In this document: positions 17,577 through 54,806 of the stretch, piece by piece
Numbering within the stretch: position 1 is the first letter of the stretch
Layout of the letters: each line of letters starts with the position of its first letter
NCBI GenBank assembly: GCA_028285945.1
Contig: JAPYNE010000009.1
Span: 19,585-83,584 of the forward strand
Direction of reading: 5' to 3'
DNA length: 64,000 bases
Source: Gammaproteobacteria bacterium
Lineage (GTDB): Bacteria; Pseudomonadota; Gammaproteobacteria; Steroidobacterales; Foliamicaceae
Program-made: the position numbers and the translations under genes
The notes under the pieces: generated by a model
Seen by the model: the letters and a program-made list of their open reading frames with translations, nothing else
Database searches by the model: none
Told to the model about the DNA's origin: nothing

Positions 17577-19865
17577 ATGCGTAAAGTGAAAGATCTTTTT
17601 GAGGCCAAAGCCGACAACCTTTGGGACACCCTAACTAGCCATGGTGGCTCGGCGGGTTTTCGAGTTCCGGAGTATCAGCGCACTTATGACTGGGGCCAAG
17701 AGAAGATCGCTCGGCTACTTGAGGATTGTGCCAATGGTTTGTACCAACTTCGTCGCAAAGGCAAGGAAGAATCGTATACCTTTCTTGGCACACTAATCCT
17801 TGTGAACGAGAGAAGTGAAAACACATTTGACGGAAAAACACTTGACATCGTAGATGGCCAACAGCGCCTAACCACACTTCTTCTAATTTGTTGTGCTCTA
17901 ATCGAGAAAATCAACGCGAATCTTCGGTCAGCTGAGTGTCTACCACCAGCTACCAGGACATTGATACTAGACGAAGCAGATATGCACATCAGCGAACTAT
18001 TTGAGTGCGTTGTTGGCGAGTTACCAGGACTTAGGCAAAGGGCGCGATATCCAAGAATAGTACGCCACGGGGATAAGAGAGCCAAGGAGAGAACAAATTC
18101 GCATTACACTTCCACAATTGCCAGATTTCTAAGGGATTTTTCTGACCATTACAGCGGTTCTCCCAGGGAGGAGTTTAAGTTTCCAGAGATCAGCGATAAC
18201 GATGGAGCAAGCGAGAGGCTCCGGAAAAACTACAGCTTCATCAAGGATCAAATCGCCTATATTGCTGACTTGCCGGAACAAAACAAAGGGATTGATTGCG
18301 AGATAGTCCCATATGGAGATTTTCAGCGTAAAGGGTATACGAATCTTCTGCCAAAAATAAATCGCCAAAGCCACATGGATAGAAATAATGCACAGAGTGA
18401 AATAGATAACATTTGCTCGGAAATAAGTAAGCTCGGAGATTCCAATAGCCTAGTACGCTTGGTGTTGTTCGCATCGTATATTAGTCGTTGCGTCGTATTG
18501 ACTCGCGTTGAGACAGAAGACCAAGATTCTGCATTTGATATTTTTGATGCACTGAACACAACAGGGGAACCGCTCACTGCAATTGAAACCCTTAAGCCTA
18601 GGGTCATTCAGACAGAAAGGAATAGTTATAAGGGATCAGAGTCCGAGATCGCATTTGGTGAAATTGAGAGACGGTTTGAGAAGATCGAGAATCCGTATGA
18701 GCGACAAAAGGAAGCTAAGGAGATTGTGGTTTCTTTCGCACTCTATAAGGACGGGGAAAAGGTAGCGAACGATTTAAGAGAACAAAGGCGATACTTGGGG
18801 AATACCTATGACAAATGTGAGTCCATTGAAGCAAAACGGAGATTTGTTACAGGGCTTGCGGAAATGACGCAATTCCGAAGTGAGTGTTGGAGGAAGGATG
18901 GCATCAAAGACGCTGCCTATCTGGAGCCAGACTCGAGACTTTGCTTACAAACAATTAAGGACATGAACACAAGCTTGGCGCTGCCCCCAATTGCACGCTA
19001 TTGGGCAAAGCGGCACGAGCCAAATGGTGAACAGAGATTTGCCCAAATAGTGAATGCAGTGACTGCATTTCTGGTCCTGAGACGTTCGGCAACAGGCACT
19101 ACCGGGGGTATCGACGCAGTTCTGCGCACCTTGATGAAACAGCAGAGCGGTGAGGGTGACCCATTGTGTGTTGGATTGGGGGCAGAGAATAAATTGCTGA
19201 ATGTAACTCAATTCAAAGCGCACTTGCGCTCCCTTCTGGCAAAGCGGCCTATCGAAGTGACAAATAAAGAGTCATGGGTTAAGGCGGTAAGAGAAGTACC
19301 GATTGCTAATCACGCAAAAGCGTTGGCAAAATTTCTTATCCTTGCTGCGTCGCAATATGCCAAGCCTGATCCACAACAACCCGGGCTCTTGACTCGGGCT
19401 GGATTTCGCAAGAGCGATGAGCAGGAGTACTTGACCTACGAGAAATGGACATCGGCGGAGTACAAGACAATTGAGCATGTCGCGCCCATTACTGATCCGG
19501 GTGAAGGGTGGGACGAAGGGATATACAGCAGACCATACATTAGGCACACTTTAGGAAATCTGGTGCTTTTGCCGCAGAGGGAGAATGCCAGTCTTGGTAA
19601 TAGCGTATGGCGCCGGAAACATTTGTTCTACTTAGCCCTCACTGAATCCGACGATAGTGAACAAGAGAAGTGGTTGCGCAAAGCCGAAGAAGAAGGACTA
19701 GAGTTTCCCAAGAGAACAAGAGACCTCATAAAGAGAGGACGCAGACTTCATTTGCTAGACCCCATTCGAGATGTTCGGGAGTGGAATGAAATGCTAGTTC
19801 GTGGCAGGACAGAAAACATCTTGGGTTTGGCATGGGATACCTTGGCAGAGTGGCTGTGGAAGTGA
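17577..19865 (+). CDS. sspE: DUF262 + DUF1524 (GmrSD-family) nuclease, SspE-like PT-sensing restriction component
   Basis: N-terminal FRVPEYQRTYDW and IVDGQQRLTTLLL (DUF262). C-terminal TIEHVAPI ... GNLVLLPQRENASLGN (DUF1524 His-Me finger). Confidence 0.8.
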   Translation: MRKVKDLFEAKADNLWDTLTSHGGSAGFRVPEYQRTYDWGQEKIARLLEDCANGLYQLRRKGKEESYTFLGTLILVNERSENTFDGKTLDIVDGQQRLTTLLLICCALIEKINANLRSAECLPPATRTLILDEADMHISELFECVVGELPGLRQRARYPRIVRHGDKRAKERTNSHYTSTIARFLRDFSDHYSGSPREEFKFPEISDNDGASERLRKNYSFIKDQIAYIADLPEQNKGIDCEIVPYGDFQRKGYTNLLPKINRQSHMDRNNAQSEIDNICSEISKLGDSNSLVRLVLFASYISRCVVLTRVETEDQDSAFDIFDALNTTGEPLTAIETLKPRVIQTERNSYKGSESEIAFGEIERRFEKIENPYERQKEAKEIVVSFALYKDGEKVANDLREQRRYLGNTYDKCESIEAKRRFVTGLAEMTQFRSECWRKDGIKDAAYLEPDSRLCLQTIKDMNTSLALPPIARYWAKRHEPNGEQRFAQIVNAVTAFLVLRRSATGTTGGIDAVLRTLMKQQSGEGDPLCVGLGAENKLLNVTQFKAHLRSLLAKRPIEVTNKESWVKAVREVPIANHAKALAKFLILAASQYAKPDPQQPGLLTRAGFRKSDEQEYLTYEKWTSAEYKTIEHVAPITDPGEGWDEGIYSRPYIRHTLGNLVLLPQRENASLGNSVWRRKHLFYLALTESDDSEQEKWLRKAEEEGLEFPKRTRDLIKRGRRLHLLDPIRDVREWNEMLVRGRTENILGLAWDTLAEWLWK

Positions 19866-19961
19866 GAGCAAGGGAACCCAAGCGGCAGATGAGCAATCGT
19901 GTTCATGGTGCCTGAAAGAAATCTGTTCATGAAATAACGGCGCTCCCCACCCGAACCAGCC

Positions 19962-21692
19962 ATGCTCACGAAGATCACTATTCGCAACTTCAAGCGCTTC
20001 GGCGAGGTTGAGGTTGAACTGGGCAGCCCGGTGGTGTTCATCGGGCCGAATAATTCGGGCAAGACCTCCGCGATGCAGGCGCTGGCTTTGTGGGACATTG
20101 GCCTGAAGCGCTGGAACGAGAAGCGTTCGGGCAAGAGCGCGCCGGAGCGGCGGCCGGGAGTGACCGTTAACCGGAGGGATTTGCTGGCTATTCCTGTTCC
20201 CAGCGCGTCGCTTTTATGGCGGGCGCTTCGGGTGCGGAATGTGCGGCGAGCGAACGGGCGGCCGCACACCGAGAATGTGCGCCTCGACCTGGTCGTTGAG
20301 GGTGTGACTGCCGATAAGGCCTAGTCTTGCGGCCTGGAATTCGACTACGCCAACGAGGAATCCTTCTACTGCCGTCCGCTGCGGTTGTCCCAAGGAAAGA
20401 CGCCGGACCGCATGCCCATTCCGGAAGCGGCGAGGGCGGCCCAAATCGTTTTCCTGCCACCCATGTCCGGTCTGGCGGCCACCGAAACGCGGCTCGATCA
20501 GGGGGCGGTGAACGTGCGGATCGGCGAAGGGCGCACGGCGGAAGTGCTGCGGAATCTCTGCCTGCGGATTAACGACGAAACCCCCGAGCTGTGGCAACGG
20601 CTGGCGGCGCAAATCAGAGAACTTTTCGTCGTTGAGCTTGACGAGCCGCGCTATATCTCCGAGCGGGGCGAAATCGTGATGGCCTATCGCGAAGAGGGGA
20701 CGAAGCTGGACCTGTCCTCAAGCGGCCGGGGATTGCAGCAAACCCTTCTCATGCTGGCCTACATGTGCGCCAACCCCGGCGCGATCATCCTGCTCGACGA
20801 GCCGGACGCGCACCTCGAAATTCTCCGCCAGCGCCAGATCTACAAGCTCATCACCGATGTCGCGCTGGAAAACGGCAATCAAATCATTGCGGCAAGCCAT
20901 TCCGAGGTGCTTCTGAACGAAGCGGCCAGCCGCGACATGGTCATAGCTTTCGTGGGCCAGCCGCATCGCTTGCAGGATCGGCCCAGCCAAGTCCATAAGG
21001 CGCTCAGCGAGATCGGATTCGACCAGTACTATCAAGCCGCGCAGGCAGGCTGGGTGCTGTATCTGGAAGGCGCATCGGATTTGGCGATATTGCAGTCTTT
21101 CGCCGAGCGCCTGGGCAATGAGGCGGCGTTGCAGGCGTTGCAGCGCCCATTTGTGCGCTATGTGGGCAACCAGCCGAGGGCGGCGGCGCAGCACTTCTAC
21201 GGTTTGCGGGAGGTGCTTCCGGAGCTTTCCGGCGTGGCGCTGTTTGATCGTCTCGACAGTGAGCCGGAGCCGGACGGCGCCTTGCAATGCATGATGTGGA
21301 AACGACGGGAAATCGAGAACTATTTGTGCTCGCGGGCAACGCTCGAAGCCTATGCCATCGCCTCGGCGCGAGTGGATGAGCCGGCGCCGCTGTTCTCGGA
21401 CATGGAAAAAGACAGGCGCCTGTCGGCTATGCGGGAAGCGGTCGCCGAGGTTGAGGAAGCCATGAGCACACTCGGCAAAGGTTCGCCTTGGGATTCGCAA
21501 GTGAAGGCAAGCGATGACTTTCTCATCCCGCTCTTCAAAACCTACTTCGCAAAACTCGAATTGCCGAACCTCATGGACAAGAAGCAGTTCTATGAGCTTG
21601 CGGCGCACGTGCCGGAGGAGAAGCTCGCCCCGGAAATCAACGAAAAATTGGACAAGATCGCAGACGTGTCCGCCTCAGCACCGTCCATGTAG
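19962..21692 (+). pseudogene. ABC-type ATPase fused to a DUF4435/Toprim-like C-terminal domain, interrupted by one in-frame TAG (20322-20324)
   Basis: ORFs 19962-20324 and 20385-21692 are in the same frame. Walker A GPNNSGKT lies upstream of the stop. Downstream are signature-like SSSGRGLQQTLLML, Walker B IILLDEPDAHL, H-loop IAASHSE, then YLEGASDLAIL ... LFDRLD ... WKRREIENYL. Confidence 0.75.
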
Positions 21693-21752
21693 TGAACCTG
21701 CCGCTATCACTTTCGAATTGACCGAAACTTGTCGCTCAACTGGAGTCACCGA

Positions 21753-22524: not shown

Positions 22525-22810
22525 TCGGACGCTTGTGGCCTAAAACCAGGGAGACGCGAAATGGGAGATGGGCCATCCGCGATACTCGAGAATCGAAATA
22601 AGCGGTCGCAATTGGAATCATTTTTTGCAAGTTCTCCCCCCACCCTAGGTGCGGAAGTAAACTCTACCACGGTATGAATTTTCCGGGTTCATGCGAGTGT
22701 CTTGTCCTGTGGAGATTTACCACGAAAGGGGTGACTGATCAGGTTGCCAGTCAGTTCGGGGCCCCATCGCGATCAAGCGCACCGGTTCGACATCGCCGTT
22801 CGGAGCTAGG

Positions 22811-23074
22811 CTACGCGAAAAGGCCAAATGCCGCAACCGTCGCGGCCAGTCCGGCGGCGACAGCGTAGAAGCGGTTGGTCAGGCGCGTTTCGAGCGCGCC
22901 CATTTCTGCCCGCAGTTCGCTGCCCAGCTTTGCGACATCTGATTTCGTTGCGTAGTCTTGGTGCTGCTGTATCGCTTCGGCAATAGCTTCCGCCTGAGCG
23001 CGCTCCACGCCTGCGGATTCGATCGCCCGCGCAGCTTGGAAGGTATCGAAAGCGGCGGCAGCCATATCGCGCAT
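22811..23074 (-). CDS. DUF1640-like small coiled-coil/membrane protein (paralogue of 8268-8498)
   Basis: MRDMAAAAFDTFQAARAIESAGVERAQAEAIAEAIQ... AVAAGLAATVAAFGLFA. Nucleotide similarity to 8268-8505 includes the CGTTACA just 5' of the ATG. Confidence 0.65.
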   Translation of the reverse strand: MRDMAAAAFDTFQAARAIESAGVERAQAEAIAEAIQQHQDYATKSDVAKLGSELRAEMGALETRLTNRFYAVAAGLAATVAAFGLFA

Positions 23075-23183
23075 TGTAACGCTGGGAGGCGTGGTGGCCA
23101 GCTCGAAATGAGGCGCGTATATGCGTATTTCCGCATAGTCTTCGCCAGCCTCGCGCAGCAATGCCGGTAACTTTGGCAGAAAT

Positions 23184-23541
23184 AGGCGCGTTGATCCATT
23201 CGCCGCTCGGCTTCATCTCGAAAGCAAAGTTTTTGCTGTGGTCGTCACGATTGCCGCCAACCACATTGAACACCATGCGCCGGAAAAGCTGGGTCTTCTC
23301 GGCGTGCGACCGTGTTAGCCAATCGCTGAGCTTGAGCAGCTCGAGGGAGTCGAAGTCCGGCATGTGGAAGTTGGAATGCACCAGTCCGGCAACGCTGTGG
23401 ATATGTCGGCGGCGGTTGCCGGAGTAGCGGTCGAAGCGGCGGGTGATGAAGTAGGCGTTGCCCGCGGCCGTAGCCCAGCCGGCCAAGGAGCGCCGGCGCG
23501 CCGCCGCCCAGCCCGTGGAAATAGACCCGCAGCTCTTTCAT
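23184..23541 (-). pseudogene. hipA: hipA kinase-toxin remnant (large internal deletion/frameshift and 3' truncation)
   Basis: N-terminal MKELRVYFHG... (frame of 23245-23541) jumps to the C-terminal-domain frame: YFITRRFDRY...RRMVFNVVGGNRDDHSKNFAFEM...GEWINAP. Similarity then stops. Confidence 0.7.
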
Positions 23542-23828
23542 GCGCTGCCGTGCGTGGCTAGCAGTTCATCCATGGTGGCGGGGCCAGGCTGGGGAAACAG
23601 CCCTTCAGCATGCTTCAGATCGCCATAAGAGGCGCACAACATCAGGAATTGGCGCAGCGAAATTTCGCCGCTGGTCTCAAACCGGCGAATGGTGGGGGCC
23701 GGCACCCCGCTTACCCTCGCTGCCTCTTGCCGACTGTGCTTGCGGGCGCGCCGCCGCTGCCGCAGTGCCGCCGCCAAATGATCCTGCACTTCCCGAGGCG
23801 TTCCAAAAAGGAATATCGGAGTATTCAT
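23538..23828 (-). CDS. hipB: XRE-family HTH antitoxin, HipB-like
   Basis: HTH segment SRQEAARVSGVPAPTIRRFETSGEISLRQFLML. ATGA overlap with the hipA remnant start. Confidence 0.75.
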   Translation of the reverse strand: MNTPIFLFGTPREVQDHLAAALRQRRRARKHSRQEAARVSGVPAPTIRRFETSGEISLRQFLMLCASYGDLKHAEGLFPQPGPATMDELLATHGSA

Positions 23829-39273: not shown

Positions 39274-40806
39274 ATGATCCTAGGCGACGCGCTTGAACGG
39301 CTCCTGCAAGACGTAACAGCGCCCTTTGTTACTGAGTTATTCCTCTACCTGCTGCTCAGCTTGTTTGTTACGGCGCTATGGTGCCTTCGGAAGAACCGTG
39401 CCGTGCGCTTCACAAGCTGGGCTCCCACGCTGCTTACCTCGGTTGGCATTCTTGGTACTTTCGTGGGTGTCGTAGTGGGGTTGCTTGACTTCGACCCCAA
39501 TCCAAATCGTCTTGCGGAGAGCACCGGGGAATTGCTCGAGGGCTTGAAGACGGCTTTCGTGAGCAGCATAGCCGGCATGTTTGGCGGCGTTCTGTTCCGC
39601 CTTGTCTCCTTTGCCTCGTGGATGCAGCCCGAGCAACAAGAGCATTCCGACAACGTGAGTTCGGGTGACATCCTCCGTGCTTTGCGCGATCAGTCGCAGC
39701 TTCTCGAAGCGGTGCGAGATGTAATTGGCGGCACCGAAGAGTCTAGCTTGGCAGGGCAGATCAAGCTGTTTCGCACCGACATGGCGGACATGCACCGCGA
39801 GAATCGAACAGCGAGAGCCGAGTTGCTCGCCGATCTTCGCACACGGCTCGACAAATTCGCCGATCAGCTTTCGAAGTCCGCCACAGAGCAAGTGATTCAG
39901 GCGCTTGAGCAGGTGATCCGGCAGTTCAACGAGAACCTGACCGAACAGTTCGGCGATAACTTTAAGGCACTGAACACTTCGGTTCAGAAACTCGTTGAAT
40001 GGCAGGAAAAGTACCGCGAACAACTTCAGCAGCTGCACCAGCTTTACGAGCAATCGGCAAAATCAATTACCACTATCGAAGCGGCTACTGCGAAAGTGGC
40101 CGAATCATCGGCCTCAATTCCAGACTCTATGGCAGGTTTGACCACCATCATGCAAACCGCCAATCATCAAGTCACTGAGTTGGAGCGGCATCTCGAAGCA
40201 TTCCAAGAGCTTCGCAACCATGCGATTGAAGCGCTCCCACAGGTACGGGAGCATGTGAAGAAGGCGACCGATGGCATGTCTGCAATGGTTACTTCTCTTG
40301 GGGAGCAGCAAAGGGAACTGCTGAGCCAGTCGGAGAGTTACGCGCAGCAGCAAAGCCAGTTGGCGCTTCAGCTGCTTGAATCCCAGAGGGAGGCTGTCAA
40401 GCAAGCTGAGAATTCGTTCGCTGAGGCTGGCAATGCGATTCAGAGTGCTGCGAGCGAGGCGCAAAAGCGGGTTGCGGAAACCAGCCAGAAAGCCAGCGAT
40501 GCCATGCAAGGCGCACTGAACGGCATTGTCGAAACCCAAGAGCGGGTAACGAAGGAATCGATGGAAAGTCTTGTGTCGCAGCTAAGCGAAGCGTCCAGCC
40601 GCACTGCTGAACAAATCAACCGGCAGATGCAGACGCAGTCTGAAGCAATGGGTAAGGAAGTCGAGCGCGTCTTACAGGAGTTGGGTCAGTACCTTGGCCA
40701 GATTTCTGGCAAGTTTGTTGAGGACTATAAGAAGTACGCAGAGGCCATGGAAAACTTTGTGAGGGAGACAAGGTCCCCATACGGTAGGTCGCCTAACAAC
40801 CCATGA
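39274..40806 (+). CDS. zorA: MotA/ExbB-like membrane protein with a ~390-aa coiled-coil tail (ZorA-like)
   Basis: RBS GAGGAGG. Three N-terminal TM helices including the MotA/ExbB-type GLKTAFVSSIAGMFGGVLF, then a long Q/E/L-rich heptad region to the C-terminus. Confidence 0.7.
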   Translation: MILGDALERLLQDVTAPFVTELFLYLLLSLFVTALWCLRKNRAVRFTSWAPTLLTSVGILGTFVGVVVGLLDFDPNPNRLAESTGELLEGLKTAFVSSIAGMFGGVLFRLVSFASWMQPEQQEHSDNVSSGDILRALRDQSQLLEAVRDVIGGTEESSLAGQIKLFRTDMADMHRENRTARAELLADLRTRLDKFADQLSKSATEQVIQALEQVIRQFNENLTEQFGDNFKALNTSVQKLVEWQEKYREQLQQLHQLYEQSAKSITTIEAATAKVAESSASIPDSMAGLTTIMQTANHQVTELERHLEAFQELRNHAIEALPQVREHVKKATDGMSAMVTSLGEQQRELLSQSESYAQQQSQLALQLLESQREAVKQAENSFAEAGNAIQSAASEAQKRVAETSQKASDAMQGALNGIVETQERVTKESMESLVSQLSEASSRTAEQINRQMQTQSEAMGKEVERVLQELGQYLGQISGKFVEDYKKYAEAMENFVRETRSPYGRSPNNP

Positions 40807-41492
40807 TGGCGAATATGGAGCGATTTATCGGGCCTCGCGGTCGCGGTGAGGGTGAGCATTGGCTTACCGTGTCCGACCTGATGGCGGGCCTGATGATGGT
40901 GTTTTTGTTCATTGCTGTTTCGCTTATGCGCAGTGCATTCGAGGTGGCGGTGGACTATAGAGATAGTCGTATGGCAATCAACGATGCTCTGGAGAAGGAA
41001 TTCCGGGACGACTTGGAAAGATGGGATGCTGATATCAATACAGATCGCCTTTCCTTCGAATTCACGGGTCCTGATGTGCTTTTTGAGGCTGGCAGTGAAG
41101 TTATGAGGCCGCGCTTCGAGGAAATTCTGGAGGACTTCTTTCCTCGGTATGTCAAAACGCTCTCTGAGTTCCTGGATTCCATTGAGGAGATACGGGTGGA
41201 AGGCCATACTTCCAGCGAATGGCGTAATCTGCCGCCCGAGGAGGCGTACTTCAACAACATGCGGCTATCTCAGGGCCGGACGCGCTCCGTGCTTCGTCAT
41301 GTTGTGGAGCTGCCTGAAGTTTTCAAACATCGCGATTGGATCAAGAGGCACATGGTGGCCGTGGGGTATTCGTCCTCACAGCTCAAGACGACCCCCGGAT
41401 CAAACCAAGAGGAAAAGGACGCCTCGCGCCGTGTGGAGTTTCGGGTCTTGACGAATGCGGATACCCAGATTCGCAGAATCATCGAGCAATGA
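40803..41492 (+). CDS. zorB: MotB/OmpA-like stator partner (ZorB-like)
   Basis: ATGA overlap with zorA. TM with the conserved Asp (WLTVSDLMAGLMMVFLFIAV). OmpA-like C-domain: RVEGHTSS...NMRLSQGRTRSV...AVGYSSSQ...ASRRVEFRV. Confidence 0.75.
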   Translation: MMANMERFIGPRGRGEGEHWLTVSDLMAGLMMVFLFIAVSLMRSAFEVAVDYRDSRMAINDALEKEFRDDLERWDADINTDRLSFEFTGPDVLFEAGSEVMRPRFEEILEDFFPRYVKTLSEFLDSIEEIRVEGHTSSEWRNLPPEEAYFNNMRLSQGRTRSVLRHVVELPEVFKHRDWIKRHMVAVGYSSSQLKTTPGSNQEEKDASRRVEFRVLTNADTQIRRIIEQ

Positions 41493-42676
41493 GACCGGAA
41501 GTGCGGCTTGAAGTGGATTTGTCTCCGCTGCGTGATGCAGTACGCCGCATGGGAGCACACCGCCATGACGTGAAGCCAGTCGTACGTCGCAATCCCGCGC
41601 CACTGGCACCCATCGATATTCAGCTGGATGAGGGAATTGAACTATCAACGGATGAGGTTCATTTTTCGAGTGGGCTTGTCAGCCATAAGGGGCATCAGGT
41701 TTTGCTTTACATCCAAGATCATGGAACGAAAGTAGAAGATGTGCTGGAAGACGGAAGCCGAGGTAATAAGTTTCACCTTGCCAATTGCGTAACGCTGCAA
41801 AATATGCGGAGCAAGAACAGATTCGGTCGCTATGTCGTGACCAACAGGTTGGACGGTCATTTCTATATTACCGGTCGGGATCGTGAAACCGGAAAACATG
41901 TTGAAAGCAAGAAAGCGCGGCTTGACGTGTGCAAGAACTGCCTCTCTTACTTGAATTACGAAGGGTATGAAAGCGCAAAGGAGTCGGGTTATGCGAGCTA
42001 TGAAAAACGAACCCAAATCTTCGAACGCTTCGACCTAGCTAGGTTCTTCGAGAACTACAGTTCATTTTTTGCTCATATGCCGAGGCGCTTTTCGGGAGAG
42101 TTTGACGGCGATTACACTGGAGATTGGGCGGAAGTATCGAAAAGAGTCAGGCGTGACCTCGATTTTGTTTGCGAAATCTGCCGGACCAGCCTCAAGGACG
42201 AACCCCGTCTTTGCCACACGCATCACAGGAACGGTGTGAAGACAGACAACAGGCCATCCAATCTGCAGGTCCTATGCGCTGACTGTCACCGGAAGCAGCC
42301 TATGCATGAGCACATGCATGTTTTGCACAAGGACATGCGCAAGCTCGCGGAGCTGCGGCGAGAGCAGGGAACCAACAGGGTGTGTAGTCGGGATGAAGTA
42401 TTCAAGTTATCCGACCCCGGCGTGCATGGAGCGTTTCATTACATTTGCCCCGAATTCGGCTTGCCTGAGGTTGGATATTTCTTTTCCGTTGGCGGCGGGC
42501 AAGACTGCTATTTGGAGCTAGCATGGCCTAACAAAAATTACGGAATATGTATTTCCGAGGAAGCTAGGCGGCAAGCACAACTGAAACTGATCGATTGGAA
42601 GGTGGAATTGCCCAATGAGATTACTGCACGGGAAGACGACTTACGCCATCGGAACCAAACACGCGGCAGGCACTGA
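41489..42676 (+). CDS. zorE: HNH endonuclease-domain effector (ZorE-like)
   Basis: ATGA overlap with zorB. HNH motif FVCEICRTSL...LCHTHHRNGVKTDNRPSNLQVLCADCHRKQ. Start moved from the ORF-track 41336 to ATG 41489. Confidence 0.7.
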   Translation: MRPEVRLEVDLSPLRDAVRRMGAHRHDVKPVVRRNPAPLAPIDIQLDEGIELSTDEVHFSSGLVSHKGHQVLLYIQDHGTKVEDVLEDGSRGNKFHLANCVTLQNMRSKNRFGRYVVTNRLDGHFYITGRDRETGKHVESKKARLDVCKNCLSYLNYEGYESAKESGYASYEKRTQIFERFDLARFFENYSSFFAHMPRRFSGEFDGDYTGDWAEVSKRVRRDLDFVCEICRTSLKDEPRLCHTHHRNGVKTDNRPSNLQVLCADCHRKQPMHEHMHVLHKDMRKLAELRREQGTNRVCSRDEVFKLSDPGVHGAFHYICPEFGLPEVGYFFSVGGGQDCYLELAWPNKNYGICISEEARRQAQLKLIDWKVELPNEITAREDDLRHRNQTRGRH

Positions 42677-43729: not shown

Positions 43730-44281
43730 ATGAGAATCAACAATCACCGATGGGCGGCGCTGGCGGTTGCTGCGCTGATTCTGGCGGGCTGCGGGCCTTC
43801 GGAGGAAGAGAAGCTCGTAGATGCTTGTACCGCGAAGTCGGTAGGGATGAAGGCGACCGTGCTGCCACTGCACTGGGCGATAGGGGACGGCAACGTGGAT
43901 TCTGTGCGGGCGCTGATTGAAGCGGGGGCTGACGTGAATGCGAAGGACGTTAGAGGAGCAACGGCGCTTCACCAGGCGGCGTATGGAAACAATGCGGCGG
44001 TAGCGGCGCTCTTGATTGAAGCGGGGGCTGACGTGAATGCGAAGAACGTTAGGGGAGCAACGGCGCTTCACCAGGCGGCGTATGGAAACAATGTGGCGGT
44101 AGCGGCGCTCTTGATTGAAGCGGGGGCTGACGTGAATGCTGTTGCGACGTTGGGGGCATCCCGAACGCGGGAACTGGCGATACGAGGATGGCGAGGAACG
44201 CCGCTGGAACTGGCGGCGGTGAGAGGCCATGCGGAGGTAGAGAAGCTGCTTCGGGAAGCGGCCGCGCCGGCGGTGGGATAA
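43730..44281 (+). CDS. ankyrin-repeat lipoprotein
   Basis: Lipobox LAVAALILAGC. Repeated LIEAGADVNAK.VRGATALHQAAYGNN.AVAALL ankyrin units. Confidence 0.8.
   Translation: MRINNHRWAALAVAALILAGCGPSEEEKLVDACTAKSVGMKATVLPLHWAIGDGNVDSVRALIEAGADVNAKDVRGATALHQAAYGNNAAVAALLIEAGADVNAKNVRGATALHQAAYGNNVAVAALLIEAGADVNAVATLGASRTRELAIRGWRGTPLELAAVRGHAEVEKLLREAAAPAVG
43913..44139 (+). repeat. 99-bp tandem repeat (2.3 copies) inside the ankyrin gene
   Basis: Units 43913-44011 and 44012-44110 differ at about 4 positions. A third, partial unit spans 44111-44139. Confidence 0.85.
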
Positions 44282-47909: not shown

Positions 47910-48044
47910 ATGACCGTGCTGCTGGACACGAATGTGGTGTCCGAAATGCCGCGCCCGCTGCCAAATCCGGCAGTGGCCACGCGCAACGTCCGGGACTTCG
48001 AGGGCATGGGCATCGAAGTCATCAATCCTTGGACGGCCGGGTGA
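47910..48044 (+). pseudogene. vapC: vapC/fitB PIN-toxin remnant with a large in-frame internal deletion
   Basis: The 44-aa product MTVLLDTNVVSEMPRPLPNPAV|ATRNVRDFEGMGIEVINPWTAG joins the PIN N-terminus directly to the C-terminal TRNxxDF...INPW motif. Confidence 0.65.
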
Positions 48045-50185
48045 GCGGCACGACCGAAGCGTTCGCGCGGGTCAAGATCGACGCGCTGCTCAAGGATGCG
48101 GGCTGGGACCTGACCGATGGCTCAAGTGTCCTGTTCGAGCACGCGCTGCCGGACGGCACGCAGGCCGACTACGTGCTCTGCGACCGGCAGGGCCGCCCGA
48201 TGGCGGCGCTGGAGGCCAAGCGCGCGAGCGTTGATCCCATTGCGGCGCAGGACCAGGGGCGGCGCTACGCCGAGCAGCTCGGCGTGCCGTTCGTGTTCCT
48301 TTCGAACGGCGAGGAAGTGCGGTTCCTTGACCGCCAGGCCGATGCCCATGCGCGCAGGATCGCGGGCTTTTACGCGCAGGACGATCTTGAACGGCGAATC
48401 GCCGCCCGCCGGGTGCGTCGCGACCTGTCCAAGGTTGCCATCGACCGGAAGGTCGTTGACCGAGACTACCAGATCGAATGCGTCGAGGCGCTGTGCGCCG
48501 AAGTCTCCAGCGGTCGGCGCAAGCTGCTGGTCGAGATGGCCACCGGAACCGGCAAGACGCGCATGGCGGCGGCTTTCATCAAGCGGCTGTTCGAGGCGGG
48601 CATCGTCACCCGCGTGCTGTTTCTCGTTGACCGCATCGCCCTGGCCCGGCAAGCCGAGGACGCCTTCACCGACCATCTGCGGGACTACCCCTGCCACGTT
48701 CTGCGGCCCGGCCGCGGCTTCGACCGCGCCAAGCGCGTGACGATAGCGACGCTGCAAACCATGGTCGCGGAGTACCGCGGCCTTTCCCCGGGCTACTTCG
48801 ATCTGGTCGTCACCGACGAATGCCACCGCTCGATCTACGGCAAGTGGAGCGGCGCGCTGCGGCATTTCGACGGCATCCAGCTCGGCCTCACGGCCACGCC
48901 CTGCACGGCGGACGCGGACGCGCCGCCCGATCCCGAGGACGGGAAGTTCGTGCGCGACACCCTCCGGTTCTTCGAGCTTGCCGAGCCCACCTACCGCTAC
49001 ACGCTGCCGCAGGCCATCGAGGAGGGCCACCTCGCGCCCTACCGCATCTACAAGGCGATGACGGTCAAGACCGCCGCCGAGGGCGGGTTCGAGGTCCGCC
49101 GCGGCGATCTCGACTGGAGCGCGATGGACAACAGGACGCGGGACGAGTTCGAGGCGCTGTTCGCCGGTTCGGAGACGATCGCAATGGATCCGAACGCCTT
49201 GGAGCGCAAGTTCACCGTGCCCGAACGCAACCGCGCCTTAGTACGGGAGTTCCGCGATGTGCTCGAAAAGGGCTTCACGGGCGGGGACGGCGTGCGGCGC
49301 TGGCCCGCTTGGGGCAAGACCATCGTGTTCGCGGTCACCAAGCGCCACGCCGAGACGCTGGCGGAGATGTTCGACGAGCGCTTCGCGGACAGGAAGCCGC
49401 ATCCGTCCACGCGCTACGCGGACTTCGTGGTGAGCGACCTGGGCGGCGGCCCCGCGCCCGACGCAAGCGCCGTCATCAAGCGCTTCAAGGACGAGGACTT
49501 CCCGAAGATCCTCGTGAGCGTGAACATGCTGGACACGGGTTTCGATTGCCCGGAAGTCGTTAATCTCGTGATGGCGCGGTTCACCCGCAGCGCGATTCTC
49601 TACCGGCAGATGCGCGGACGCGGCACGCGCAAGGCGCCGCACATCCGCAAGCACGACTTCACGATCTTCGACTTTGCGGGCGTGGCCGATTTCCACGGCG
49701 ACGACGAAAGCGAGATCAAGGGCGGGCCGGTCCGCGAGGTTGACCGGCCGGGCCGCCCTTCCGACCCCCGCATGCTGCTGACCTTGGATGTGGACGACCA
49801 CATCGATCCGGCGAGCCGCGAGTGGCTGACTCTGGACGAGAACGGCCGGATCGCGCGCGCGGCGGAGCACGAGGCGCGCGCCTGCGAGGTGGGCGTGCGC
49901 TTCGAGGCATGGCGGGGAGAGCAGGAGGATTTCAATGCGGAGCAGGCGCGCTGGGCGGGGCTGATCGGCAGCCGCGTGAAGGCGGACGCGATGGGCATGG
50001 ACGCGTTCGGCGAATGGAATTTCGACGAGCATCCCTTCGCCGCCCTCGGCGGCTACGACCAGGCGCGCCGCGTGTTCGGCGGCGGGCAATCCCTCGACCG
50101 GCTGATCGCCGGGTTCAACGCCGCGGTGTTCGGCCAGGGGCAGGCGGCGCGCAATGCCGGAAGCGGCCCCGCCGGAGAGGGCTAG
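48041..50185 (+). CDS. hsdR: type I restriction enzyme R subunit (EcoEI-like)
   Basis: N-terminal nuclease-like domain (KIDALLKDAGW...ADYVL), helicase motif I MATGTGKT, motif II VVTDECH, LGLTATP, and a C-terminal EcoEI_R_C-like tail. GTG 48041 overlaps the vapC-remnant stop; TTG 48029 is an alternative start. Confidence 0.85.
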   Translation: MSGTTEAFARVKIDALLKDAGWDLTDGSSVLFEHALPDGTQADYVLCDRQGRPMAALEAKRASVDPIAAQDQGRRYAEQLGVPFVFLSNGEEVRFLDRQADAHARRIAGFYAQDDLERRIAARRVRRDLSKVAIDRKVVDRDYQIECVEALCAEVSSGRRKLLVEMATGTGKTRMAAAFIKRLFEAGIVTRVLFLVDRIALARQAEDAFTDHLRDYPCHVLRPGRGFDRAKRVTIATLQTMVAEYRGLSPGYFDLVVTDECHRSIYGKWSGALRHFDGIQLGLTATPCTADADAPPDPEDGKFVRDTLRFFELAEPTYRYTLPQAIEEGHLAPYRIYKAMTVKTAAEGGFEVRRGDLDWSAMDNRTRDEFEALFAGSETIAMDPNALERKFTVPERNRALVREFRDVLEKGFTGGDGVRRWPAWGKTIVFAVTKRHAETLAEMFDERFADRKPHPSTRYADFVVSDLGGGPAPDASAVIKRFKDEDFPKILVSVNMLDTGFDCPEVVNLVMARFTRSAILYRQMRGRGTRKAPHIRKHDFTIFDFAGVADFHGDDESEIKGGPVREVDRPGRPSDPRMLLTLDVDDHIDPASREWLTLDENGRIARAAEHEARACEVGVRFEAWRGEQEDFNAEQARWAGLIGSRVKADAMGMDAFGEWNFDEHPFAALGGYDQARRVFGGGQSLDRLIAGFNAAVFGQGQAARNAGSGPAGEG

Positions 50186-50189
50186 CAGC

Positions 50190-51818
50190 ATGCCCATGAC
50201 GCCCGAGCTGCGGCGCGGCATCGACCGCATCCGCGATTATCTGTTCGGCGGCGGCTACCCGAACCCGGCCCAGAACGCCGAGCAGCTCAGCTTCCTGATC
50301 TATTTCTACATGCACGAGGCTGCGGACGCGGCGCGAGCTCGCGCGGCGCAGCGGCCAGGCGCCGCGCCCCACGTCGGCGCGTACGAAGGCGAATGGAGCC
50401 TGCGCGACCCGCGCAATGCCAGCGAACCGGATGCGGCCGCCGTGCCGCGCGGGCTTCTGCGCTGGTCGTCCTGGGCGCACGCGCTGAACGGGGAGCGGCT
50501 GGTCAACTGGGTGCGCGAAGAGGTCTTTCCATTCCATGCCGAGCTGGCGGCGGGCGGCGTGACGGACTTCATGGACGGCGCCCGGCTGGTGATCGACGAG
50601 CCGACCGTGCTCACCCAAGTGGTGAGCCAGTTGAGCGATCTGCGTCTCGACCGGGTGGATGCGGACACGAAGGGCGACTTGTTCGAGCATGTGCTGCGCC
50701 AGATCCGGAAGGCGGGCGAGCTCGGCCAGTTCCGAACGCCGCGCCATGTCATCCGCGCCCTGGTGCGGCTGGTCGATCCCCGGATCGGCGAGACCATCTA
50801 CGACCCGGCCGCCGGAACGGCCGGCTTCCTGGCCGCCGCGTGGGACCATATCCGGCTCGCCAACTCCTCGCCCGACGGGATTGAGGAGGTCAAGGCGGAT
50901 GGCAAGACCGTCCAGCGGGGCCTCGGCGACATGCTGAGCCGCGGCGCCGTGAAACAATTGCGCGAAGCGACCTTCTACGGCGCCGACGTGGATCCTCAGA
51001 TGGTCCGCCTCGCCACCATGAACCTGACTTTGCGGGGGCTGGACCGGGTGAGGATCCTGAGGCGCGACGCGCTGACCCGCTCCCTCGACCGGGCGGCCAA
51101 GGCGGAACTCGGCTTTCCGGCGCGCGGCTTCGACGTGATCCTCGCCAATCCCCCATTCTCCGGCCGGCTGGACAAGGACCGCATCGTCGAGGACGTGAGG
51201 ATCGGCCGCACGGCGCAAACCGAACTGCTGTTCCTGCAATACATGCTCAACCACCTTGTGGATGGCGGGCGCTGCGGCGTGGTCGTGCCTGAGGGCGTGC
51301 TTTTCGGCGGCAGCGGCGCGCATAAGGAATTGAGGCGCAAGCTGATCGAGAACAACACCGTCGAAGCCGTGCTGTCGCTGCCGGGCGGCGTGTTCAACCC
51401 CTATTCCGGCGTCAAAACCTCGGTGCTGGTCTTCCGCAAGGGCGGCGCGACCGAGCGCGTGATGTTCCTGAACGCCGGCAACGACGGCTTCAAGCTCGAC
51501 GCCAACCACGACCAGCCCATCGACGAGGACGACCTGCCCGGCCTGATCGAGGCGTTCCGCGACCGGGAGGCAAGGTGGCGCGCATGGCAGGACCGTGATG
51601 CGAAGGCCGACTGGACTGAAAAGTGGTGGTTCGCGGATGCCGACGCGATCCGCGCCGCCGACCTCAACCTCAGCGCCAACCGCCACCGCCCACAGAGCCG
51701 CGCAAAGGCGGAGCATCGCGATCCGCTGGAAATCCTGGAGGAGTTGCGGGCTATCGAAACGGAGATACTCGGCGAAATCGACGCGCTAGCCGAAGCTGTT
51801 AGTGGAGCCGGCTCGTGA
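50190..51818 (+). CDS. hsdM: type I R-M N6-adenine DNA methyltransferase subunit
   Basis: HsdM N-domain (IRDYLFGGGYPNPAQNAEQLSFLI), SAM motif IYDPAAGTAGFL, catalytic ILANPPFSG. Start moved to ATG 50190. Confidence 0.9.
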   Translation: MPMTPELRRGIDRIRDYLFGGGYPNPAQNAEQLSFLIYFYMHEAADAARARAAQRPGAAPHVGAYEGEWSLRDPRNASEPDAAAVPRGLLRWSSWAHALNGERLVNWVREEVFPFHAELAAGGVTDFMDGARLVIDEPTVLTQVVSQLSDLRLDRVDADTKGDLFEHVLRQIRKAGELGQFRTPRHVIRALVRLVDPRIGETIYDPAAGTAGFLAAAWDHIRLANSSPDGIEEVKADGKTVQRGLGDMLSRGAVKQLREATFYGADVDPQMVRLATMNLTLRGLDRVRILRRDALTRSLDRAAKAELGFPARGFDVILANPPFSGRLDKDRIVEDVRIGRTAQTELLFLQYMLNHLVDGGRCGVVVPEGVLFGGSGAHKELRRKLIENNTVEAVLSLPGGVFNPYSGVKTSVLVFRKGGATERVMFLNAGNDGFKLDANHDQPIDEDDLPGLIEAFRDREARWRAWQDRDAKADWTEKWWFADADAIRAADLNLSANRHRPQSRAKAEHRDPLEILEELRAIETEILGEIDALAEAVSGAGS

Positions 51819-53095
51819 AGCCGCAACCTGTAAAGCATATGCCCCTTGGCGAAGTGGCCGATGTGATTCGCGGCGTCACTTTTAGGAAGTCGGACGCCGC
51901 TGACTCTCCTGCGTCAGATCGAACGCCAGTGCTGCGAGCAGGAAATATCGGCAAGGACCTGGATTTAGACAATGGTCTTGTATGGGTGCCGAGTGATCTT
52001 GTGCTTCAAAAGCAACGTACGTTGCGAGGCGACATCGTGATGTGTGCATCATCGGGTAGTTCGGTTGTTGTGGGCAAAAGCGCTCCTCTTCGGCAACAGT
52101 GGAACGGAACGATCGGGGCATTTTGCATCGTCATTCGACCCAAATCGAAAGCTTGCGATCCCGGATTTCTTGGATTTTTTCTTGGGAGTCCTCATTTTCG
52201 CCAATGGGCGTCACAGGCTCCCGGAGCCAACATAAAAAACATCCGCAAGAGTGATTTGCAGCAGTACCTTGTTCCCCTCCCGCCTCTCGACGAGCAGCGG
52301 CGGATCGTCGCCATCCTGAACCGGGCGGCGAAGATCGAGCGGCTGAAGAAGCAAGCGCAGGAGCGGCTGCGGGAATTCATCCCCGCGCTTTTCGTCAAAA
52401 TGTTCGGCGATCCGGCCGGGAACCCTATGGGGTGGCCTGTTCTCTCTCTCGGTGAACTGTCGGTAATTGGTCCTCAGTACGGAGCCAATGCCCGGTCGAA
52501 AACGCTCTTGTCAGGCGAACCACGTTATGTGCGCATCACTGATATACAAGAAGGAGGAGGGTTGTCAGACGAAGCCGTCGGAGTGCCGCTTCCGAACTGG
52601 GAGAAGTATCGGCTCCGCGATGGAGACCTTCTTTTTGCACGAAGCGGCGCTACTGTAGGAAAGCCATACATTTATCGACCGCAAGACGGGCTTTGTGTTT
52701 TTGCGGGGTATCTGATTCGCTTCCGGCTGGAGGCAACTAAACTTCATCCTGAAGTCTTATTTGGGCTGACCCAGACTTATGCCTATAGCGCGTGGGTCAA
52801 GAGTAAACGACGTACAGTTGCACAACCGAATATCAACGGTCGGGAATTTGCCACACTGAGAATCCCGGTGCCTCCGCGAAGGCTTCAAAATCAGTACGTC
52901 CAAATGGTCGAAGCGGCGCGTTCCACCGCTGCCTTGGCAGACTCCGGCGTTGCAGTTAGCTCGGCGCTAAACATGTCACTCATGCCCCAACTGCTGCAAA
53001 ACCAAAGCCCGTCAATGCAATATCATCCGAGCCAAATGGACATGTCGCTGAGCTTAAGGCAGAGCGGCGGGCCAGCTAGTGGAGAAGAGAAATGA
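51815..53095 (+). CDS. hsdS: type I R-M specificity subunit
   Basis: Two target-recognition domains separated by the conserved helix LPPLDEQRRIVAILNRAAKIERLKKQAQERL, with a second conserved helix near the C-terminus. The GTG start overlaps the hsdM stop (GTGA). Confidence 0.85.
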   Translation: MKPQPVKHMPLGEVADVIRGVTFRKSDAADSPASDRTPVLRAGNIGKDLDLDNGLVWVPSDLVLQKQRTLRGDIVMCASSGSSVVVGKSAPLRQQWNGTIGAFCIVIRPKSKACDPGFLGFFLGSPHFRQWASQAPGANIKNIRKSDLQQYLVPLPPLDEQRRIVAILNRAAKIERLKKQAQERLREFIPALFVKMFGDPAGNPMGWPVLSLGELSVIGPQYGANARSKTLLSGEPRYVRITDIQEGGGLSDEAVGVPLPNWEKYRLRDGDLLFARSGATVGKPYIYRPQDGLCVFAGYLIRFRLEATKLHPEVLFGLTQTYAYSAWVKSKRRTVAQPNINGREFATLRIPVPPRRLQNQYVQMVEAARSTAALADSGVAVSSALNMSLMPQLLQNQSPSMQYHPSQMDMSLSLRQSGGPASGEEK

Positions 53096-54147
53096 TTCAC
53101 TTGAGTAGCTTTACGGCAGTTAGGTACCGTGGAATTGATGGATTGTCGGTGCCTAAACTGACGAGGGCTAATCTTTTCACAGGAGTGAATGGCATCGGCA
53201 AAACGGCATTGCTCGAAGCCATATGGCTTTTCACAGGAAGGTACAACCCTGGTCTGTTGTGGAACGCTAACGTGCAGCGTTCTGGGGGGCCGCTTGTGGA
53301 CCCCCTTTCCCGGCTAACGCATGACAAGCTGGAGCTTCGCGGGATGGAGAACGGCGAAGATCGTTGCCTCAGTTATGTTTTTGAGAAAATCAACGGTTCT
53401 GTTGATCGGGCGCCAGCTGCCCATCCCCTGCGGGAAGACATTGCCAATTTGCCGCCAGTTGTTGGCCTAATCCGCGCTTACCTAGATGGCAAGCCCTTAG
53501 AAGAGGATTCTAGAGGCCTGCATGTAACTCCCTCTGGAGCGGTGCTGCATCAATCCGGCGAGATGGCTTCCGAACGTCCCAGCTGTGTCATCGAGAACAC
53601 AAGATTCCATAATGAAGTTCCACTCGAGTATTTGCAGAGATATTCCGATCTGGTAAGGGAAGGCCAAAAAGCCGAGTTAGTAGGCGCAGTCAATATGGTT
53701 GTTGAGGGAATCGAAGACTTGGAGATTTTGACCGAAGACAGCGGTGGGACATACCTCTCGGTAGTGATGAGGCATGGGAAGCCGCGGTCGATTCATGATC
53801 TGGGAGGTGGAGCAGTCAGGCTGGCTAGGCTGCTGCTTGGTTTTTCTGCATCCCGGAACGGCATTTTCCTATCGGATGAGATGGAGAACGGTATCCATTA
53901 CCGCGCCCAACGGTCAATTTGGGATAGAGCGCGAGAATGGATGACTCAATGGAATGTGCAATTTGTAGCCACCACCCACAGTGGTGAACTGGTCAATGCA
54001 GCGATCGAAGCGTTTGCGGAAAAGGCTGCGGATGATCTCTCGATACACCAAATCTTCCAAAACGACAGGACAGGACAGTTGGAGATTGCGACTTTTACCG
54101 GCGAGTCACTCGCGGGCGCACGAGACCTCAACCTGGAGGTCCGTTGA
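53092..54147 (+). CDS. ABC/SMC-type AAA ATPase (AAA_21-like; AriA/AbiLi/RloA-like)
   Basis: Walker A GVNGIGKT, signature-like LGGGAVRLARLLL, Walker B IFLSDEMENGIH, H-loop VATTHS. ATGA overlap with the hsdS stop. Confidence 0.8.
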   Translation: MIHLSSFTAVRYRGIDGLSVPKLTRANLFTGVNGIGKTALLEAIWLFTGRYNPGLLWNANVQRSGGPLVDPLSRLTHDKLELRGMENGEDRCLSYVFEKINGSVDRAPAAHPLREDIANLPPVVGLIRAYLDGKPLEEDSRGLHVTPSGAVLHQSGEMASERPSCVIENTRFHNEVPLEYLQRYSDLVREGQKAELVGAVNMVVEGIEDLEILTEDSGGTYLSVVMRHGKPRSIHDLGGGAVRLARLLLGFSASRNGIFLSDEMENGIHYRAQRSIWDRAREWMTQWNVQFVATTHSGELVNAAIEAFAEKAADDLSIHQIFQNDRTGQLEIATFTGESLAGARDLNLEVR

Positions 54148-54806
54148 TGCGGCCCTCTGACGATGGTTATTCCCAGAAACCCGAAGGCGGATTGAGAATT
54201 CAATCCGACCGGTTGCTGCTGGTTGAAGGCCGAGACGAAGTCAATTTTCTGTCTGTTTTGATCCGCGAGTGCATTGGCGAGGATGCAGGTGTTCAGCTGA
54301 TCGACGCAGGTGGAAAGGACCAATTCGCTACAAATCTAGAAGCGATACGAATCTCGGCAAAAACTCGCCCGACCTTGGGTTTCATCGGTGTTATTCGGGA
54401 CGCGGACGATGATGCACGAGGTGCCTTTGAGAGCGTGCGTAGCGCGCTTCGCAAGGTTGGATACGAATCCCCAAGCTCCCATGGAAACTTTTCGGACTCG
54501 TCTCCTTCCATTGGCATTTTCATTGTTCCGGACGGAGTGAGCAGCGGTGCCATTGAAACCTTGTGCCGCCGGTCTGTGGAAAATTCCGCTGCGGGTAGAT
54601 GCGTAAACATGTATCTCGATTGCCTCGTTGAGCACAACGCCATGGAATCATCGAACAAGGATAAAAGTTTTTCGCACGCATACTTGGCTTCCATGCGTAA
54701 TCCGGTGGCCAGAGTTGGAGAAGGCGCGTTGGGCGGTGCTTGGAATTTCGATTCCCCTGTGTTTCGAGACATCCTAGACTTCATTCGCACGCTCCAATCC
54801 CAATAA
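54147..54806 (+). CDS. Toprim-like small protein (DUF3226/DUF4435/RloB-type)
   Basis: LLLVEGRDEVNFL (Toprim Glu), GVIRDADDD (DxD), IFIVPDG...GAIETLC. The ATG shares 1 nt with the ATPase TGA. Confidence 0.65.
   Translation: MRPSDDGYSQKPEGGLRIQSDRLLLVEGRDEVNFLSVLIRECIGEDAGVQLIDAGGKDQFATNLEAIRISAKTRPTLGFIGVIRDADDDARGAFESVRSALRKVGYESPSSHGNFSDSSPSIGIFIVPDGVSSGAIETLCRRSVENSAAGRCVNMYLDCLVEHNAMESSNKDKSFSHAYLASMRNPVARVGEGALGGAWNFDSPVFRDILDFIRTLQSQ

Follow-up and report, generated by a model that had tools for sequence, protein, structure and literature searches.

Two restriction loci in a 64,000-nucleotide stretch of a contig from a gammaproteobacterium (JAPYNE010000009.1; "the window" hereafter denotes this whole stretch), an SspABCD-SspE phosphorothioate system and a type I restriction-modification (R-M) operon, hsdRMS, are each followed by genes of the ABC-ATPase and Toprim type. 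The most likely explanation, of which we are fairly confident, is that these are two unrelated, self-contained modules: the pair behind hsdS would be an autonomous cassette of the PDC-M38 type that sits at the 3' end of the hsd operon, and the neighbor of sspE would be an inactivated hotspot gene resembling class 1 OLD nucleases, which lies beside the ssp genes incidentally. An earlier note on this DNA had proposed a recurring two-layer design, in which modification-dependent restriction is backed up by an ATPase-Toprim module, and it had presented the pairing with Ssp as new. The gene positions underlying that proposal were confirmed for both loci. Overall, the observation was confirmed in part, and the interpretation found partial support, as a known pattern at type I R-M loci, but failed for Ssp.

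The ssp cluster and the gene behind it were composed of the following features:

11038-12228, minus strand: sspA, cysteine desulfurase of 396 amino acids (aa), divergent from sspBCDE (open reading frame (ORF) and synteny)
12310-13245, plus strand: sspB (PADLOC SspB, 5.5e-104)
13271-16663, plus strand: sspC (PADLOC SspC, E=0)
16666-17502, plus strand: sspD (PADLOC SspD, 3.6e-137)
17577-19865, plus strand: sspE, effector with DUF262 and DUF1524 (GmrSD-type) (PADLOC SspE, 6.7e-246)
19962-21692, plus strand: OLD-type ABC ATPase with a Toprim-like C-terminus, 577-aa family, nonsense-interrupted (frame, Pfam, PADLOC)
20322-20324, plus strand: in-frame TAG that replaces the Trp121 codon (TGG to TAG) (sequence and translation)

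NCBIfam, Pfam, and PADLOC profiles were used for the window proteins, and NCBIfam had a family-level name for none of the four key proteins. SspE contained the Pfam domains GmrSD_N (7e-31) and GmrSD_C (2e-8), and the syntenic homologue of sspA in the related locus L004 was annotated as Aminotran_5 and was 85% identical (tblastn). With these PADLOC and Pfam matches and the divergent sspA gene, the SspABCD-SspE system is complete, and sspBCD is its phosphorothioate modification module. The GC content at third codon positions (GC3) was 0.59-0.63 for sspB-D and about 0.60 for sspABCD, compared with about 0.85 for the flanking host genes. The value for sspE was 0.47, unlike both sspABCD and the downstream ATPase gene (0.76). 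In addition, SspE was only 62% identical between the window and L004 (7641-9932), whereas SspA-D were 85-88% and the ATPase was 86% identical. Because of this low identity and the lower GC3, the sspE effector seems to have been exchanged independently of the modification genes.

The gene behind sspE starts exactly 96 base pairs (bp) past it and encodes the motifs GPNNSGKT and ILLDEPDAHL. It had been described as a fused ATPase-Toprim gene. The ATPase assignment stood; the gene is not one ORF, as the TAG leaves two ORFs of 120 and 435 aa that share one frame, and its Toprim nature is apparent at the level of the fold only. The lost tryptophan was conserved in at least 90% of 11 homologues (alignment A1) and was invariant among 47 (alignment A4). 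The identical 120-aa shortened product is on record in NCBI, JGI, and Logan assemblies, and a second 120-aa haplotype was found on four further contigs. Because the truncation recurs as two haplotypes in independent assemblies, on at least five contigs from different sources, the TAG represents a real polymorphism, and a sequencing error was ruled out as its source. As a nonsense allele at a near-invariant tryptophan recurs in this way, the gene in the window is most likely a pseudogene, and the neighbor of sspE most likely does nothing in this genome. The 90% cluster to which the window copy belongs (P0361-P0365) also contained P0365, an undisrupted allele of 577 aa, and P0364, a 293-aa allele from a 2.48-Mb genome that arose by a separate frameshift. 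At least two inactivations of the OLD-like gene have thus occurred in this lineage, one being the W121 amber mutation, with two haplotypes, and the other the frameshift, while an intact allele co-exists. Erosion of the gene seems to be under way in the lineage, and its repeated loss suggests relaxed selection or a cost of carriage. Decay was also seen nearby: a hipBA toxin-antitoxin locus (22806-23828) retained hipA remnants of about 280 bp and about 90 bp and a helix-turn-helix (HTH) antitoxin gene (23538-23828). About 630 bp of hipA were missing in comparison with a sister genome, and L001 and L004 keep a full HipA of 422-435 aa.

Next, the family of the interrupted gene was characterized. 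Pfam detected AAA_15 (44.2 bits) in the N-terminal and AAA_21 (47.2 bits) in the C-terminal fragment, on the two sides of the TAG, and PADLOC yielded partial matches to AriA, AriAB, and GajA. The C-terminal 238 aa matched no Pfam family at E<=10, including OLD-like_TOPRIM and DUF4435. An AlphaFold model of the 577-aa protein had a mean predicted local distance difference test score (pLDDT) of 72 and a predicted template modeling score (pTM) of 0.45 overall, with a pLDDT of 80-95 in the C-terminal domain. The modeled C-terminal core had the order beta-alpha-beta-alpha-beta-beta and carried the conserved residues E369, D373, and D429. The top Foldseek match of the model was the class 1 OLD of Thermus scotoductus (TsOLD, 6p74), aligned over the full length (641 columns), and GajA was likewise aligned over the full length (653-675 columns); the TM scores of only about 0.2 stemmed from poor domain packing. 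TsOLD was also the best PDB match of the sequence profile. Judging from these models, the 577-aa protein looks like a single-gene, class-1-OLD-like nuclease.

The family turned out to be large. More than 120 homologue clusters (70-93% identity) were all intact, with lengths of 576-587 aa, and the 80 loci that were fetched from different GTDB species (57-75% identity) each encoded one protein of about 577 aa. Matches at GTDB species loci numbered more than 500 (57-93% identity), many of them in metagenome-assembled genomes (MAGs) of sponge symbionts, and the taxa included Nitrospinota, Chloroflexota, Acidobacteriota, Latescibacterota, Alpha- and Gammaproteobacteria, and one Bathyarchaeota MAG. 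The neighbors in other species (69 upstream, 75 downstream) were heterogeneous and mostly housekeeping genes, and no neighbor family had more than three members. This heterogeneity fits the pattern of class 1 OLDs (P2 Old, TsOLD; PMC10568477, PMC12392090), which are single genes without conserved partners (PMC10568477). The family differs from the class 1 OLDs in its acidic motif, E369/D373 ... D429-x-x-[DE] with no clear DxD, in the missing OLD-like_TOPRIM match, and in its unusual conservation, 57-93% across many phyla; the window copy is, moreover, truncated. No experimental study of this family was found in the literature.

Both modules of the window had been labeled PARIS-like. PARIS also combines an ABC ATPase of the AAA_15/AAA_21 type with a Toprim nuclease, in two genes or fused (PMC9122126, PMC11464382). 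It is an abortive-infection system that is triggered by the anti-restriction protein Ocr, upon which the released Toprim nuclease cleaves tRNA-Lys, and is thus conceptually a second layer behind R-M or BREX. Its detection rule requires AAA_15 with at least 32 bits or AAA_21 with at least 27 bits, plus DUF4435 (PF14491) with at least 27 bits (PMC9122126). The ATPases of both modules exceeded the first threshold, but DUF4435 was absent from both in a Pfam scan at E<=10, and the AriA/AriAB matches covered the ATPase core and part of the junction only. The label was, therefore, not retained. Menshen (NsnA with DUF262, the ATPase NsnB with DUF3696, and the effector NsnC) was also considered, since in the window an NsnB-like ATPase gene comes after a gene with DUF262, and it was rejected: DUF3696 and a third gene were lacking, SspE has a DUF1524 nuclease of its own, and the NsnB profile matched only the ABC core of the 577-aa protein (residues 234-321). 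An SspE-like neighbor was found at 0 of the 80 family loci, and the family has no link to DUF262 genes elsewhere.

We then asked whether the proximity to the ssp genes is meaningful. No ssp gene was present within 10 kb of the 577-aa gene at any of the 80 species loci. Conversely, the 577-aa gene was absent downstream of sspE in seven other SspE lineages with readable flanks, with SspE identities of 85%, 61%, 49%, 46%, 36%, 31%, and 29%. They included the closest SspE (L176/L177, 85%), a Nitrospinota lineage (49%), a Gammaproteobacteria MAG (46%), two metagenome contigs (36% and 31%; the latter, L097, with only about 300 bp of readable downstream flank), and a Sphingomonas plasmid (29%). In the Nitrospinota lineage (L178-L183, 2597-7646), sspE is convergent with sspBCD and is preceded by a Pbe-like set that encodes an HKD-SNF2 helicase, a small protein, a 714-aa AAA_15 ABC ATPase, and a 156-aa protein; this ABC-ATPase system contains no Toprim domain.

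In close relatives, blastn synteny revealed one chromosomal hotspot, flanked by a radical-SAM gene on the upstream side and by a gene for proline dehydrogenase on the other. Ssp and the ATPase together were found in the window and in L004-L007, Ssp without the ATPase in L176/L177 and L190, and the ATPase without Ssp in L001-L003, where a methyltransferase takes the place of ssp. Together with the distribution in other species and SspE lineages, the GC3 differences, and the uneven SspE identity, this pattern marks the two as separate cargo of a hotspot and not as a pair that is inherited jointly. In L001 (7678-8598) and L002 (159-1079), which are devoid of ssp, the same hotspot contained a ScoMcrA-type nuclease with a sulfur-binding domain (SBD) and an HNH domain, a phosphorothioate-dependent restriction type. 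Since ssp-less sister genomes hold this nuclease there, strains thus alternate at one locus between writing phosphorothioate and restricting phosphorothioated DNA.

Taken together, the missing ssp genes at 80 of 80 loci, the single-occupancy states, the differing GC3, the uneven SspE identity, and the inactivated copy led us to regard the Ssp adjacency as a lineage-restricted, incidental juxtaposition at a hotspot that probably does not form a functional two-layer unit. The 577-aa gene would be a resident of the variable hotspot between the radical-SAM and proline dehydrogenase genes, beside which the ssp cluster with its lower GC content lies. The opposite view, put forward in the earlier note, is that both arrangements are functional two-layer units, with the adjacent ATPase-Toprim module as a dedicated suicide backup, and that the Ssp pairing is new and selected. 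In its favor, the genes in the window lie on the same strand with a short gap, the ssp-less relatives pair the 577-aa gene with the ScoMcrA-type nuclease, so that it keeps phosphorothioate-related company in this lineage, and the general principle is on record for BREX, type I R-M, and Dnd (PMC12839542, PMC10802264, PMC10853773). These points are outweighed by the distribution in other species, by the seven SspE lineages, by both single-occupancy states, by the nonsense mutation and the independent frameshift in a relative, and by the unlike compositions of sspE and the ATPase gene. In Acinetobacter, furthermore, SspBCDE frequently has no other system beside it, and a clone with near-universal Ssp lacks PARIS (bioRxiv 10.1101/2025.08.01.668115). 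We therefore regard this view as improbable. The Ssp pairing was not supported as a novelty, as the adjacency appears incidental and the window copy inactivated. If it were nevertheless a two-layer arrangement, Ssp would join the modification-based systems that recruit an OLD-ABC/Toprim backup, but the evidence speaks against this, at least via the 577-aa family.

The second locus comprised five genes:

48029-50185, plus strand: hsdR, EcoAI-like type I restriction subunit of 718 aa (Pfam ResIII 3.5e-34, HSDR_N, Helicase_C, EcoEI_R_C)
50154-51818, plus strand: hsdM, N6-adenine methyltransferase (Pfam N6_Mtase 1.7e-55)
51815-53095, plus strand: hsdS, specificity subunit (Pfam Methylase_S 9e-22, two stretches)
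53092-54147, plus strand: ABC ATPase, PDC-M38A-like / AbiLi-like (Pfam AAA_21 4e-14, AAA_15 5e-11)
54144-54806, plus strand: DUF3226 Toprim-type nuclease partner of 220 aa, PDC-M38B-like (Pfam DUF3226 1.9e-29)

For hsdR, PADLOC REase_I (4.6e-75) and NCBIfam restrict_EcoAI (3.2e-72, under the cut-off) were matched in addition, and the length of 718 aa was that of a 58%-identical homologue in L083. The profiles of all three subunits point to a type I R-M operon, hsdR-hsdM-hsdS. Overlaps of 4 bp were found between hsdM and hsdS, between hsdS and the ATPase gene, and between the ATPase gene and the DUF3226 gene. All five genes lie on one strand, and the pair is predicted to be translationally coupled to the hsd operon via these overlaps. 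Promoter and terminator scans at both loci yielded no more sites than shuffled sequence. GC3 was nearly identical for hsdS (0.55), the ATPase gene (0.545), and the DUF3226 gene (0.54), in comparison to 0.86 for hsdM and a host-like 0.89 for hsdR, and the pair may have arrived together with hsdS. The hsdS gene occurred in the population in forms of 426, 425, 418, 417, 351, and 267 aa (P0370-P0378, L092), while the downstream ATPase and DUF3226 genes were 100% identical. Such variability would be expected if the specificity subunit is still being shuffled.

The ATPase (AAA_21 53.8 bits, AAA_15 43.3 bits) had intact Walker A, Walker B, and H-loop motifs (GVNGIGKT, IFLSDEMENGIH), and its best PADLOC match was PDC-M38A (7.9e-34), followed by AbiLi (2.7e-27). 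Its partner was expected to be a Toprim protein after a split of ATPase and nuclease, and this was supported, with the qualification that it belongs to DUF3226 and not to DUF4435: the scores were 103.4 bits for DUF3226, 11.1 bits (E 0.32) for DUF4435, and a sub-threshold 20.2 bits for OLD-like_TOPRIM. Its best PADLOC match was PDC-M38B (3.5e-10). The residues E28, G29, D31, E32, D86, D88, D130, and E138 were intact, and they were invariant or at least 90% conserved among 39 homologues; E28, D31/E32, D86-x-D88, D130, and E138 would be the acidic residues expected of a Toprim nuclease. In an AlphaFold2 model (pLDDT 83, pTM 0.80), the top Foldseek matches were to the C-terminal Toprim region of the Xanthomonas OLD (6njv, 6njx; E 5e-4, probability 1.00), followed by retron Eco2, GajA, and TsOLD, and the match to the Xanthomonas protein supports a Toprim nature of the modeled DUF3226 partner.

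The two ATPases of the window were only 26% identical over about 100 residues, and their genes differed in GC3, in accord with the previous proposal that they are independent acquisitions and not a duplication. For the nuclease domains, a relationship could not be demonstrated from sequence, the only profile-profile match between the 577-aa and DUF3226 families being non-significant (hhalign E 0.07, near the 'LxxEG' strand).

Several known systems resemble the hsd-linked pair. The two adjacent, overlapping genes match both components of PDC-M38, which is a candidate system; no mention of PDC-M38 or DUF3226 was found in the literature searched. The ATPase resembles AbiLi of the lactococcal AbiL system, and AbiLii has been modeled as an OLD-type Toprim protein matching 6NJV (PMC13064643), which was also the top match of the window partner, although no PADLOC AbiLii model matches the latter. 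RloAB, the 'restriction-linked ORFs' in type I R-M loci of Campylobacter jejuni (Miller et al. 2005, as cited in PMC10802264 and PMC12065111), likewise consists of an ABC ATPase and a small nuclease of the Toprim superfamily, encoded inside the hsd operon or at its end, a location shared by the window pair. The difference is that the window partner is a DUF3226 protein and not RloB, which had no Pfam match in it at E<=10, and that the host is unrelated. A preprint on the PARIS structure lists AbiL, a Nostoc pair, and Campylobacter RloAB among the ABC ATPase plus Toprim/OLD systems, and its authors read RloAB as a possible partner that synergizes with R-M (PMC10802264).

Similar arrangements have been described for other modification-based defenses. 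According to a 2026 survey, BREX and related loci contain a 'backup effector layer' of OLD-ABC modules linked to Toprim in at least 1242 taxa (PMC12839542), and a 2024 survey proposed backup suicide nucleases beside Dnd (PMC10853773). The logic is that inferred in the earlier note, in which a modification-based first line is joined by a nuclease linked to an OLD-ABC ATPase, within the operon or next to it; the surveys covered BREX, related systems, and Dnd, but not SspABCDE or type I R-M. A further embedded case was found on plasmid pNsp_c of Nostoc sp. ATCC 53789, where a 625-aa AAA ATPase is encoded between pglX and pglZ of a BREX-1 operon (L199, 6001-7878); it is a distant homologue of the 577-aa gene product, with 26% identity over 476 residues. 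The same operon contains a HEPN gene between brxC and pglX.

The genomic contexts of the hsd-linked pair were variable. In relatives, the ATPase and DUF3226 genes were always paired and overlapping. The pair occurred among housekeeping genes without a nearby R-M system (L184, L189), adjoining a Type ISP-like R-M system (L185-187), in viral contigs (L194), and as the sole cargo of ColE1-type Klebsiella plasmids of about 4.1 kb (117 records, namely L197 (NZ_CP030721.1, 4119 bp) and 116 others). These plasmids are non-mobilizable and contain, besides the pair, rop and an HTH gene, which suggests that the pair acts there as a stand-alone defense or plasmid-maintenance module. Because it occurs without an R-M system elsewhere, the pair is clearly an autonomous two-gene cassette.

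The position behind hsdS was also used by the other family. Methylase_S was the most common upstream family of the 577-aa gene, with 3 of 69 loci (L049, L083, L087), always on the same strand and with gaps ranging from a 4-bp overlap to 166 bp. This is a large excess over random placement in the genome, a baseline that is not the defense-island background. The hsdR and hsdM products of L083 were 58-59% identical to those of the window; therefore, one and the same slot is filled by different ATPase-Toprim modules in related hsd operons. The pair and the 577-aa gene behind hsdS thus support a recurrence of the arrangement for type I R-M, whereas for Ssp it was not supported.

Two further explanations arise from these contexts. 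One holds that the pair is integrated with the type I system, that it guards HsdRMS, and that it fires when restriction is blocked by an anti-restriction protein, as PrrC does with EcoprrI. This would agree with the coupling by 4-bp overlaps, with the GC3 shared with hsdS, with the reuse of the slot by another ATPase-Toprim family, and with the precedents of RloAB in Campylobacter and of the PARIS/Ocr logic (PMC10802264, PMC9122126). On the other hand, the pair exists without R-M in chromosomes and alone on 4-kb plasmids, R-M adjacency was seen in only two of about six sampled contexts of DUF3226 pairs, and no R-M system needs to be present in the cell for defense by PARIS, the only relative with a solved mechanism (PMC9122126); thus, we consider a functional integration rather unlikely. 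Similarly doubtful is the more general idea that selection has made the slot 3' of hsdS a recurrent docking site for structurally unrelated abortive ATPase-Toprim modules, which would be swapped together with hsdS as a 3' cassette and would be functionally coupled to it, for example by sensing anti-restriction proteins directed against HsdS/HsdM. If it were true, type I specificity and the backup nuclease would be exchanged together.

We favor the interpretation that the hsd operon acquired an autonomous ATPase-DUF3226 cassette at its 3' end, in a slot that is used by other ATPase-Toprim genes elsewhere. By analogy with PARIS, AbiL, and RloAB, the ATPase would hold the DUF3226 Toprim nuclease inactive. 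A phage cue, possibly an anti-restriction protein, would release or activate the nuclease, which might then cut tRNA or DNA and thereby abort the infection. The pair would serve as a backup of R-M while being mechanistically independent of it, and co-transcription with hsdRMS would ensure that both layers are present together.

Several points weigh against this explanation of the two loci. The mechanism of the DUF3226 pair is drawn wholly from analogy, and PDC-M38 is a candidate defense system only. The hsdS gene was compositionally atypical at other loci, too; for this reason, the low GC3 that it shares with the pair was downgraded from proof of co-transfer to weak evidence for co-acquisition. 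The Toprim label of the 577-aa protein comes from its modeled fold. The independent SspE contexts amounted to about eight lineages, a small sample, and a metagenome scan with an SspE alignment relied on the generic DUF262 motif DGQQRLTT and returned about 77 non-SspE DUF262 loci and three SspE-like loci, which gave no usable statistics. In L004-L009, sspE and an intact 577-aa gene downstream of it share one strand and are only 10-69 bp apart, and co-transcription and cooperation of the two genes are conceivable there. Finally, all 455 codons past the TAG are open, so that the mutation may be recent, or the gene may be working via readthrough or as a split protein. Readthrough or suppression, or a functional 120-aa Walker-A fragment with a remainder of 435-455 aa, would fit the single disruption and the persistence of the allele as two haplotypes in several samples. 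Nevertheless, we judge continued function to be very unlikely: the break lies inside the N-terminal lobe of the ABC ATPase at an invariant tryptophan, all of the homologue clusters and species loci encode a single polypeptide, and the independent frameshift and the decayed hipA gene point to erosion of the island.

Additional genes of the window were the following:

39274-42676: complete Zorya type II system, with zorA (39274-40806), zorB (40803-41492), and the HNH nuclease gene zorE (about 41500-42676) (PADLOC 1e-85 to 1e-137)
10242-10829: Fic-domain gene (Pfam Fic 2.9e-15; PADLOC SoFic 1.2e-16, PDC-S04)
43730-44281: ankyrin-repeat protein gene

The Zorya system lies in a low-GC patch (0.53) and is not followed by an ATPase-Toprim gene. 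It is a third nuclease-bearing defense system, a point in which the window departs from its description in the earlier note. The Fic gene is located between a gene for an AAA_16/AAA_22 STAND-like ATPase (8418-9881) and sspA, and because of its low GC3 (0.58) it probably belongs to the inserted block that carries ssp. The ankyrin-repeat gene and the many relatives of the defense genes in sponge MAGs suggest that the source organism is a sponge symbiont. Identical contigs are those of GCA_028285955.1 and of the JGI samples 3300009875, 3300009876, and 3300009887.

The two-layer idea as such has been published before, for type I R-M loci with RloAB and for PARIS (PMC10802264, PMC9122126), for BREX (PMC12839542), and for Dnd with other stand-alone nucleases (PMC10853773). 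New here is a DUF3226/PDC-M38-type example among the known R-M-embedded ATPase-Toprim modules; the extension to Ssp was the sole new claim of the earlier note and was unsupported. With both single-occupancy states in sister genomes, the ssp locus illustrates that adjacency in a defense hotspot is not evidence of partnership. The 577-aa gene that resides there represents a very widespread and highly conserved OLD-like family with a C-terminal domain outside the Pfam models. At the hsd locus, a DUF3226-type pair that is predicted to be coupled translationally to a type I R-M operon would extend the theme of RloAB and PARIS to a new nuclease family.

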